Of a DNA stretch of 24,000 bases, positions 10,415-11,197 are shown one piece after another; within the stretch, counting starts at the first letter, position 1; each line of letters opens with the position of its first letter. Source of the DNA: an uncultured Chloroflexia bacterium (GTDB taxonomy: Bacteria > Chloroflexota > Anaerolineae > JAAYZQ01). Location: assembly GCA_963700285.1 (NCBI GenBank), contig CAVOXA010000022.1, positions 123,665 to 147,664 of the forward strand, read 5' to 3'. A program made the position numbers and the translations under genes. The notes under the pieces are model-generated. The model was not told the origin of the DNA, did no database searches, and saw only the letters and a program-made list of their open reading frames with translations.

Positions 10415-11197
10415 ATGCAGATCCTGGAGAACTATGACGAATGGAAGGCTACCTTTCAGGCTGGTTGGCTGGCTCATCTCCAAGAGACGGGTGAGATCGA
10501 TTGGTCGCTGTACAACCGTCCCGACAACAAAACCGCCCCTGCAGGGCCGGGCGTCGATCTGGCCCAGAGCCGCCTGATGCTCATCACCACCTCGGGGGCC
10601 TACCTGCCGGCAGAGCAGGAGCCCTTTGATGCGGCCAACCCCCTGGGCGACTATAGCATCCGCCTTTGGCCCTCGTCCACACCCCTGGAGGTACTGGCCT
10701 ACTCCCACGACCACTATGACCAGGCGGCGGTAAAGGCTGACCCGCAGGTGCTTCTGCCGTTGGGCCACCTGGAGGAGCTGGTCGGTGAGGGCGCCATCGG
10801 CGAGCTGGCCCCCTCCGTGGTCAGTTTCATGGGCTACCAGCCGGACGTTTCCCGCGTGGTGGACGAGATGATCCCACAGATTGTGGCGGCCGCGCAGGCA
10901 GAGAAAGTGCAGGCCGTGCTGCTGGTTCCCGCCTGACCGCTTTGCTCCCAGTCCGTTGGGCTGGCTGCAAGGGCGCTAGAGATGGCGGGCATGGCCACGA
11001 CGCTGACGAGCTGGAACGCGGGAGTCACCCGCCTGACGGCGCCGCCCCGGGCTACCTTTACCCGGCTGGAACGGGGGGCCACGCTGGGCCAGCCCCACGA
11101 TGCCGCCCAGCAGCGATGCGTGCTGGATGCGACGCTGGACCTGCTGGCGCAGGACGCGCCGCTTGAGCCGGTCAACATGCGGCAGATCTGTGCCTAG
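10415..11197 (+). CDS. Glycine/sarcosine/betaine/D-proline reductase B (GrdB/PrdB) family selenoprotein, UGA-Sec at 10934-10936
   Basis: ORFs 10415..10936 and 10982..11197 share a frame with only the TGA between them. Read-through gives ...KVQAVLLVPA-U-PLCSQSVGLAARALEMAGMATT... (UxxC). Family-like motifs upstream: DYSIRLWP, YSHDHYD, DPQVLLPLGHLEELVGEGAIGELAPSVVSFMGY. Confidence 0.7.
10938..10975 (+). promoter_or_regulatory. Bacterial SECIS-like stem-loop
   Basis: Starts 2 nt after the UGA. Hand-folded pairs 10938-10943/10970-10975, 10944-45/10967-68, 10948-51/10961-64 and 10953-54/10959-60, with apical loop GUUG. Bulges and mismatches as in known bSECIS hairpins. Confidence 0.5.

Follow-up and report, generated by a model that had tools for sequence, protein, structure and literature searches.

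A PrdB-like gene of an uncultured Chloroflexia bacterium, probably encoding a selenoprotein, that gene callers cut in two at an in-frame UGA

The gene considered here lies at positions 10415-11197, on the + strand, of a 24,000-nucleotide (nt) stretch of contig CAVOXA010000022.1 from an uncultured Chloroflexia bacterium; this whole stretch is called the window below. Two open reading frames (ORFs), which public annotation enters as separate proteins, are very likely one gene of 260 residues that belongs to the selenoprotein B superfamily (GrdB/PrdB, PF07355) and uses its in-frame UGA as a codon for selenocysteine (Sec). It is an ordinary member of the long-known PrdB/GrdB-type selenoprotein family, cut in two by gene callers, and it is best described as a standalone PrdB-like UxxC reductase and not as a D-proline reductase. 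“PrdB” has ranked for twenty years with the most abundant selenoproteins of the environment, and the clade described here comes without the PrdA that the characterised enzyme needs. A corrected annotation restores the selenoprotein and marks these Chloroflexota as Sec users. The Sec codon kept across 59 species, a sister clade that replaces it with Ser or Gly, and a compact, covarying selenocysteine insertion sequence (SECIS) provide handles for experimental work on this protein.

The reading frame across the UGA

The elements of the gene, apart from its hairpin, are the following.

10405..10409, + strand, Shine-Dalgarno-like GGGAG, 5 nt before the ATG, read from the sequence
10415..11197, + strand, read-through coding sequence of the PrdB-like (selenoprotein B superfamily) probable selenoprotein, 260 residues, ATG to TAG with one in-frame UGA
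10934..10936, + strand, UGA codon 174, very likely read as selenocysteine; TGA in 59 of 68 species genomes and canonical PrdB/GrdB Sec column
10943..10945, + strand, Cys177 codon TGC, second residue of U-x-x-C and presumed resolving cysteine; invariant in 60/60 Sec-type sequences

From the ATG at 10415 the frame meets TGA at 10934-10936 and is then open to the TAG at 11195-11197. The ORFs 10415..10936 and 10982..11197 are in-frame with each other and no other stop separates them, an arrangement that an earlier note on this DNA had pointed out and that is seen directly in the sequence. The note also expected a gene caller to split the gene, and the public calls on the source contig do give two products, of 173 and 71 amino acids (aa). 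The read-through product comprises 260 residues together with the UGA position, and the UGA stands in the context ...AVLLVPA-U-PLCSQSVGLAARALEMAGMATT..., exactly the UxxC motif that had been described. Homologues align from residue 1 of this product, in agreement with a start at ATG 10415, and the 15 codons between the TGA and ATG 10982, which read PLCSQSVGLAARALE, are among the most conserved of the protein.

A search of 5.8 billion proteins returned 672 matches, and the best 120 of them were inspected for length. Most of these 120 are 173-residue products ending at the column of the UGA, and the public annotation is wrong for them in the same way as for the window gene, an error that appears to affect most of the 672 matches and thus hundreds of homologues. 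About a dozen are full-length (260–290 residues); these align over the whole read-through product at 48–60% identity and carry Ser or Gly at the UGA column. A genome scan with one genome per GTDB species gave 68 loci, mostly from Chloroflexota (Anaerolineae, Caldilineae, Chloroflexia) with some from Neomarinimicrobiota, SAR324, Acidobacteriota and others. The aligned column is TGA in 59 loci, Ser in four, Gly in four, Arg in one and Cys in none, and the motif shared around it is LLVP[AS]-U-P[LI]C-x-QSV. One of the organisms with a TGA-type gene, Thermoflexus hugenholtzii JAD2 (L028), is in cultivation. In a neighbour-joining tree the Ser/Gly forms make up one sister clade, and the other clade keeps TGA in 59/59. 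The Ser and Gly residues might have been TGA codons translated under an alternative code, but the DNA holds real GGC, GGG, TCC, TCA and AGC codons, and a gene-caller artefact is therefore ruled out. The wider family numbers 1,440 representatives at E <= 0.001, and the best 150, which were tabulated, include 47 truncated exactly before the column, 39 with Cys (CPxC-HQ), 16 with Ser, 11 with Gly and three with Trp. The earlier note proposed checking whether Sec or Cys aligns at this column in homologues: this is borne out by TGA in the 59 loci and by Cys in the wider family, and it fails for the nearest full-length homologues with their Ser or Gly. The Sec/Cys correspondence of selenoprotein families is thus present at the family level and absent within the nearest clade.

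The DNA beyond the TGA has the character of coding sequence. In all 60 TGA-type sequences the frame past the TGA stays open for 84–96 codons, the other two frames having medians of 8 and 54. Variability at codon positions 1, 2 and 3 is 0.20, 0.14 and 0.44 downstream and 0.25, 0.20 and 0.51 upstream, which is the same coding pattern, and the codon right after the TGA is always Pro175, with synonymous variation alone (CCG, CCA, CCT or CCC). The median identity to the window protein is 67% for the C-terminal part versus 57% for the N-terminal part. Homologues that end at residue 173 with nothing conserved after it had been named beforehand as the outcome that would speak against a single gene, and both the open frame and the identities run the other way. 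These comparisons place the downstream frame under purifying selection. The AlphaFold model made from the alignment is one alpha/beta domain (predicted local distance difference test, pLDDT, 91.3; predicted template modelling score, pTM, 0.91) in which one fold takes in strand 167-171 from the part preceding the UGA and strands 194-199 and 213-215 from the part following it. The loop at the N-terminus of helix 178-190 carries Sec174 and Cys177 (U-P-L-C). Both halves are thus predicted to build one domain; no relative among solved structures was found by sequence or by fold.

These data bear directly on the reading in which the TGA is a genuine stop and the locus is a split gene or pseudogene, yielding the 173-aa protein and perhaps also a 71-aa protein initiated on its own at ATG 10982. 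Such a reading would accommodate the output of the gene callers, which is exactly these two proteins, the use of TGA to end other genes of the window, and the fact that no Sec machinery is seen there. We nevertheless judge it extremely unlikely. A decaying pseudogene is not expected to keep the same TGA in 59 species, and the conserved PLCxQSVGLxAR segment is preceded by no in-frame start codon, so that a separately initiated second polypeptide cannot explain its conservation. The purifying selection on the downstream frame, the strands of both halves within one modelled domain, and the full-length Ser, Gly and Cys homologues, which are single polypeptides, argue against it as well.

The position of the UGA within the family points to Sec. 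The read-through product scores 34.1 bits with PF07355 GRDB, above the gathering cutoff of 22, and the match pairs residues 40-171 with model positions 214-345 of 347, the model stopping two residues before the UGA. TIGR04483 PrdB, the best NCBIfam model, aligns without a break across the UGA over residues 48-245, with 105 bits. Relatives truncated at Sec end 2-3 residues past position 144-145 of the PrdB model, or past positions ~344-349 of GrdB models. The UGA therefore falls on the column that is canonical for Sec in the PrdB and GrdB models, inside U-x-x-C, where the earlier note had placed it. The C-terminal 86 residues taken alone match no Pfam family.

The hairpin after the UGA and the case for selenocysteine

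Directly downstream of the UGA, and inside the coding region, lies a hairpin of two nested extents.

10948..10964, + strand, conserved SECIS-type core hairpin of 17 nt, with a 7-bp stem (10948-10954 with 10958-10964) and a GUU loop at 10955-10957, starting 11 nt past the UGA
10944..10968, + strand, extended hairpin: beyond a 2x2 internal loop, two more pairs (10944-10968, 10945-10967) that are mostly conserved, compared in 55 sequences

With the U of the UGA counted as column 1, a hairpin in fixed register is common to 60/60 TGA-type sequences: columns 15-21 pair with columns 25-31, and the 3-nt apical loop is GUG, GUU, GUC or GUA in 58 of them. The stem overlies the Gln-Ser-Val-Gly-Leu codons and its pairs are preserved via synonymous sites. 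The Gln and Leu codons occur as CAG/CUG in 46 sequences and as CAA/UUG in 14, and no sequence combines the two sets. At pair 15-31 the bases are U-A, C-G or G-C, and a single sequence has GCC/GGC in place of UCC/GGA. Covariation is seen at three pairs of the stem. As many as 97% of the cells are paired, versus at most 44% when the partners are slid, and double-sided changes occupy 35 cells versus 9.7 in shuffles, none of 500 shuffles reaching the observed value. When synonymous codons for QSVGL are drawn at random from the usage of the same genes, the six inner pairs form 2.9% of the time, versus 60/60 observed. The hairpin is lost in the non-Sec homologues: they have nearly the same peptide, but they form only 4.7 of the 7 pairs, and their median hairpin energy is -0.9 kcal/mol versus -8.6 for the Sec forms. 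Below the core, pair 11-35 is GC in 52/55 sequences and pair 12-34 is CG or UG in 49/55, and pairs 7-39 and 9-37 are found in only about 20% of sequences. What stands of the 38-nt SECIS-like stem-loop that the earlier note drew at 10938-10975 is consequently its upper 17 nt, conserved and covarying; the lower part is unconserved. Taken together, the comparison shows a hairpin that is under structural selection and of SECIS type.

The core resembles the minimal SECIS of E. coli fdhF in being 17 nt long and in starting 11 nt past the UGA, and its loop begins with GU in 58/60 sequences. For fdhF, in work attributed to Liu and colleagues in 1998, it is reportedly required that the hairpin start 11 nt after the UGA, and the G and U of the apical loop are said to contact SelB. 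The hairpin described here differs from that of fdhF in its perfect 7-bp stem, its 3-nt loop and its lack of a bulged U; the two sequences are unrelated, and SelB binding by the present hairpin is putative. The qualitative features set out for bacterial SECIS elements, namely a stem-loop directly 3' of the UGA and a small apical loop containing G (PMC1088965, PMC11431864), are all found here, and the 17-nt upper stem-loop has been described as the minimal bacterial SECIS that binds SelB (PMC11431864). In the mechanism that we propose, the 17-nt hairpin with its GU-initiated loop would recruit SelB-GTP-Sec-tRNASec once UGA174 is reached, and selenocysteine would be inserted in place of termination, a SelB-dependent step to which the conservation points.

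The window uses the standard genetic code, in which TGA is not reassigned: three other genes with Pfam support end at TGA as their ordinary stop, and an internal TGA occurs in none of the nine genes checked. This leaves little room for the idea that the UGA is read through without Sec, by a near-cognate tRNA for Trp or Cys or under an alternative code, with the hairpin as a generic stimulator of read-through. The idea draws on the tolerance of the sister-clade scaffold for Ser or Gly at the column, and on the three tabulated representatives with Trp there, which are probably code-4 gene calls. In addition to the code itself, a hairpin with the minimal geometry of a SelB-binding SECIS, a UGA at the established Sec column of the family within UxxC, and the retention of TGA in 59/59 members of the clade, which would be odd if an ordinary sense codon sufficed, are all difficult to reconcile with it, and we give it hardly any credence.

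Several observations weigh against Sec insertion at the UGA, or limit what can be said of the protein. No tRNA-Sec, selA, selB or selD is present in the window or in the fetched loci; tRNA scans of the window and 60 loci gave no tRNA-Sec, a result that is uninformative at such a scale. Folded as a single sequence, the hairpin is no more stable than its shuffles (z = -0.58), so the case for it must rest on the comparative evidence, and a scan of the window against Rfam, which is not known to include a bacterial SECIS family, gave no match. The closest full-length homologues have Ser or Gly, and not Cys, at the Sec column. This is unusual where Sec has a redox role, and it means that the scaffold can be maintained without Sec. 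Finally, no conserved neighbour, fusion or solved structure constrains the chemistry or the substrate. On the other side, the literature describes selenoprotein-rich lineages among the Chloroflexota, and the comparative evidence from the frame, the column and the hairpin leads us to retain, with high confidence, a single gene with Sec at UGA174.

Family level, proposed chemistry and genomic surroundings

The earlier note assigned the protein to the GrdB/PrdB family, which holds at the superfamily level and does not extend to either equivalog. Against TIGR04483 PrdB the product reaches 105.2 bits, where the equivalog cutoff is 300; against the subfamily model TIGR01918 it reaches 30.1 versus 65.45, and against the TIGR01917 GrdB equivalog 22.1 versus 602, with only the C-terminal half of the model matched. 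GrdB-type models as a group give 22–41 bits versus cutoffs of 602–800, and the scores for GrdB, GrdF, GrdH and TIGR01918 are all far under their cutoffs. On these scores the protein is a member of the superfamily only, and not a PrdB or GrdB equivalog. No PrdA, GrdE, GrdA or PrdC is encoded in the window. Being far below the PrdB equivalog cutoff and having no PrdA/GrdE/GrdA neighbour, the protein is therefore classed as a PrdB-like selenoprotein with a UxxC motif that stands alone.

A true PrdB subunit of D-proline reductase, or a B subunit of glycine, betaine or sarcosine reductase, whose pyruvoyl or carbonyl partner is encoded elsewhere, would fit with PrdB as the best NCBIfam match and with the name “D-proline reductase (dithiol) PrdB” that the Joint Genome Institute (JGI) gives to several homologues. 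Two M24 creatinase/prolidase-like genes 1–3 kb upstream could even supply proline. This assignment is in our view very unlikely. Besides the low scores, no PrdA/GrdE/GrdA-type neighbour recurs in the 68 loci, whereas D-proline reductase, where it has been characterised, cannot do without the pyruvoyl subunit PrdA; the gene for PrdA adjoins that for PrdB, and PrdA requires PrdB for its maturation (PMC11229817). Conservation of the upstream M24 genes does not reach even to the closest relative, the uncultured Chloroflexia MFD03804.bin.1.93 (L006; 92% identity), and one of these genes is frameshifted. The carriers of the gene, moreover, are mostly Chloroflexota, SAR324 and Neomarinimicrobiota. 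None of these three lineages is known for Stickland fermentation.

The chemistry of the standalone PrdB-like protein can be proposed entirely by analogy. In Clostridioides difficile PrdB, Sec151 attacks the alpha-carbon of pyruvoyl-bound proline, and it is essential, the U151C variant being inactive (PMC11229817). By comparison with PrdB and GrdB, the selenolate of Sec174 would be the attacking nucleophile on an electrophilic centre, Cys177 would resolve the adduct to a selenenyl-sulfide, and the latter may be re-reduced by a thiol or an NAD(P)H-dependent system.

Two further sources of functional clues were tried and rejected. The first was a conserved neighbourhood: the neighbours of the window gene are shared with L006 alone, clustering of all ORFs within 5.5 kb at the 68 loci put the largest family in 6/68, and among the 109 nearest neighbours of substantial size 154 Pfam families were counted, the commonest being Pyr_redox_2 in 5/109. 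The second was domain fusion in longer Cys-type relatives, which is inconsistent (an AMP-binding fragment and a helix-turn-helix (HTH) domain).

Some observations concern the relatives themselves. Where a scaffold is well conserved, it is uncommon for Sec to give way to anything but Cys. In the Ser/Gly sister clade (L001, L003, L005, L045, L047, L057, L060, L062, L063, L066 and L071) the second Cys is often lost too, yet its proteins are 48–60% identical to the Sec form and keep some 50 invariant residues, which suggests a Sec-independent role. One metagenome-assembled genome (MAG) of the Caldilineaceae, CBDBZO01, holds two TGA-type copies on its contigs 1 and 6 (L036 and L040), both with intact hairpins, so paralogues exist within one genome. 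Residues 255-314 of a Cys-type relative (P0200) match PF24696, the “UGSC family”, weakly and below cutoff over the CxxC region (E 9e-4). UGSC is another abundant marine UxxC selenoprotein family, and the match hints at a distant relationship between the UGSC and PrdB-like families.

The rest of the window contains ABC-2 permeases, a tandem solute-binding protein and the two M24 creatinase/prolidase-like genes, and, downstream of the selenoprotein gene, a CdhD-like gene with a 4Fe-4S protein, followed by phage-like genes. A promoter and terminator scan around the selenoprotein gene gave nothing informative on the + strand. The individual features are these.

333-1544 and 1561-2964, ABC-2 permease genes, upstream of the tandem solute-binding ORF
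4161-6869, + strand, 902-residue ORF with tandem extracellular solute-binding domains, SBP_bac_1 and SBP_bac_8
8419-9387, - strand, ORF in another frame than the next, with Creatinase_N positions 67-128 and a Peptidase_M24 domain
9344-9580, - strand, ORF with Creatinase_N model positions 1-62
13578-14558, + strand, portal (phrog_10963)
15205-17022, + strand, fusion of head-maturation protease and major capsid protein (PF25209, phrog_133, phrog_4523)
20605-21330, + strand, Laminin_G_3 protein in the phage-like region

Opposite the solute-binding ORF at 4161-6869 runs a long antisense shadow ORF (4209-6692, 827 aa) without a family match. The second of the two tandem M24 genes, at 8419-9580 on the - strand, is frameshifted near 9344-9387, where either a pseudogene or an assembly error may be involved. 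Long antisense ORFs also lie opposite the selenoprotein gene, at 10040-10975 on the - strand; one of them, 10040-10768 (242 aa), is among those that have tblastn matches in 55–63 loci and no Pfam match. In this GC-rich DNA they shadow the conserved coding strand and are not separate genes.

Directly 3' of the selenoprotein gene, at 11451-12748 on the + strand, follow a 336-residue protein with a partial match to CdhD (PF03599 positions 263-378) and a 2x[4Fe-4S] ferredoxin-like ORF. CdhD is the delta subunit of CO dehydrogenase/acetyl-CoA synthase. As listed, the ferredoxin-like ORF overlaps the CdhD-like gene by 220 nt, so that it probably starts further downstream; L006 is the one relative in which both genes are conserved alongside the selenoprotein gene. 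Between ~12500 and 24000 the base composition shifts sharply: the GC skew, about +0.05 before, becomes about -0.22, the AT skew changes to about +0.2, and the GC content falls from 0.65 to 0.58–0.62. The same region carries a phage-like head module on the + strand. Its matches are all remote, the best being to Microcystis phage Mae-JY22 (35% identity over 29% of the protein), and no terminase was seen in it. The module also adjoins the homologous gene in L006, and could be a prophage, a prophage remnant or an element like a gene transfer agent (GTA).

Comparison with PrdB, GrdB and metagenomic families

The closest characterised counterpart is PrdB (TIGR04483) of Clostridium sticklandii and Clostridioides difficile. 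Both proteins are of similar size (~240–260 residues), have Sec in U-x-x-C at the equivalent column (Sec151 in C. difficile), and are encoded with a SECIS directly downstream inside the coding region. Unlike PrdB, the window protein has an extra N-terminal segment of ~47 residues outside the PrdB model, no prdA, prdC, prdH or other prd gene lies nearby in the window or in the 68 related loci, and the carriers are Chloroflexota and marine lineages and not clostridia. With GrdB, GrdF and GrdH it shares a PF07355 score above threshold, homology to the C-terminal half of GrdB (~211-366 of 431) and Sec at the same UxxC column. It differs from GrdB, whose full length is ~430 residues, in that the entire N-terminal half of ~210 residues is absent and that no grdA, grdE, grdC or grdD gene neighbours it.

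A tentative proposal, which we hold to be possible but less probable than not, is that the all-Sec clade, centred on Chloroflexota and extending to SAR324, Neomarinimicrobiota and Acidobacteriota, is an orphan selenoenzyme with a U-x-x-C site, no pyruvoyl partner and a substrate other than proline, glycine or betaine. If this were true, bacteria that are largely non-fermentative would have in this clade either a reductive chemistry that is new or an oxidoreductase dedicated to selenols and thiols. The sister clade with Ser or Gly would then derive from the same scaffold, independent of Sec and possibly without catalytic activity.

D-proline reductase and GrdB appear in reviews as UxxC selenoproteins, and a “proline reductase PrdB” (pfam07355, UxxC) has been among the most abundant selenoprotein families of ocean metagenomes since 2005, with 42 genes in the Sargasso Sea and 235 genes plus 110 Cys homologues in the Global Ocean Sampling (GOS) data (Zhang, Fomenko and Gladyshev 2005; Zhang and Gladyshev 2008). 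“PrdB” has been recorded from non-Stickland bacteria as well, for instance Anaeromyxobacter and Geobacter uraniireducens (Zhang et al. 2006). Like this metagenomic group, the present clade combines pfam07355 and UxxC with environmental, non-Stickland hosts, SAR324 and Neomarinimicrobiota among them, and from this likeness we infer that the two are probably the same broad group. The metagenome papers treat that group as PrdB and separate no standalone clade from it. It is the present analysis that adds a distribution centred on Chloroflexota and a sister clade with Ser or Gly.

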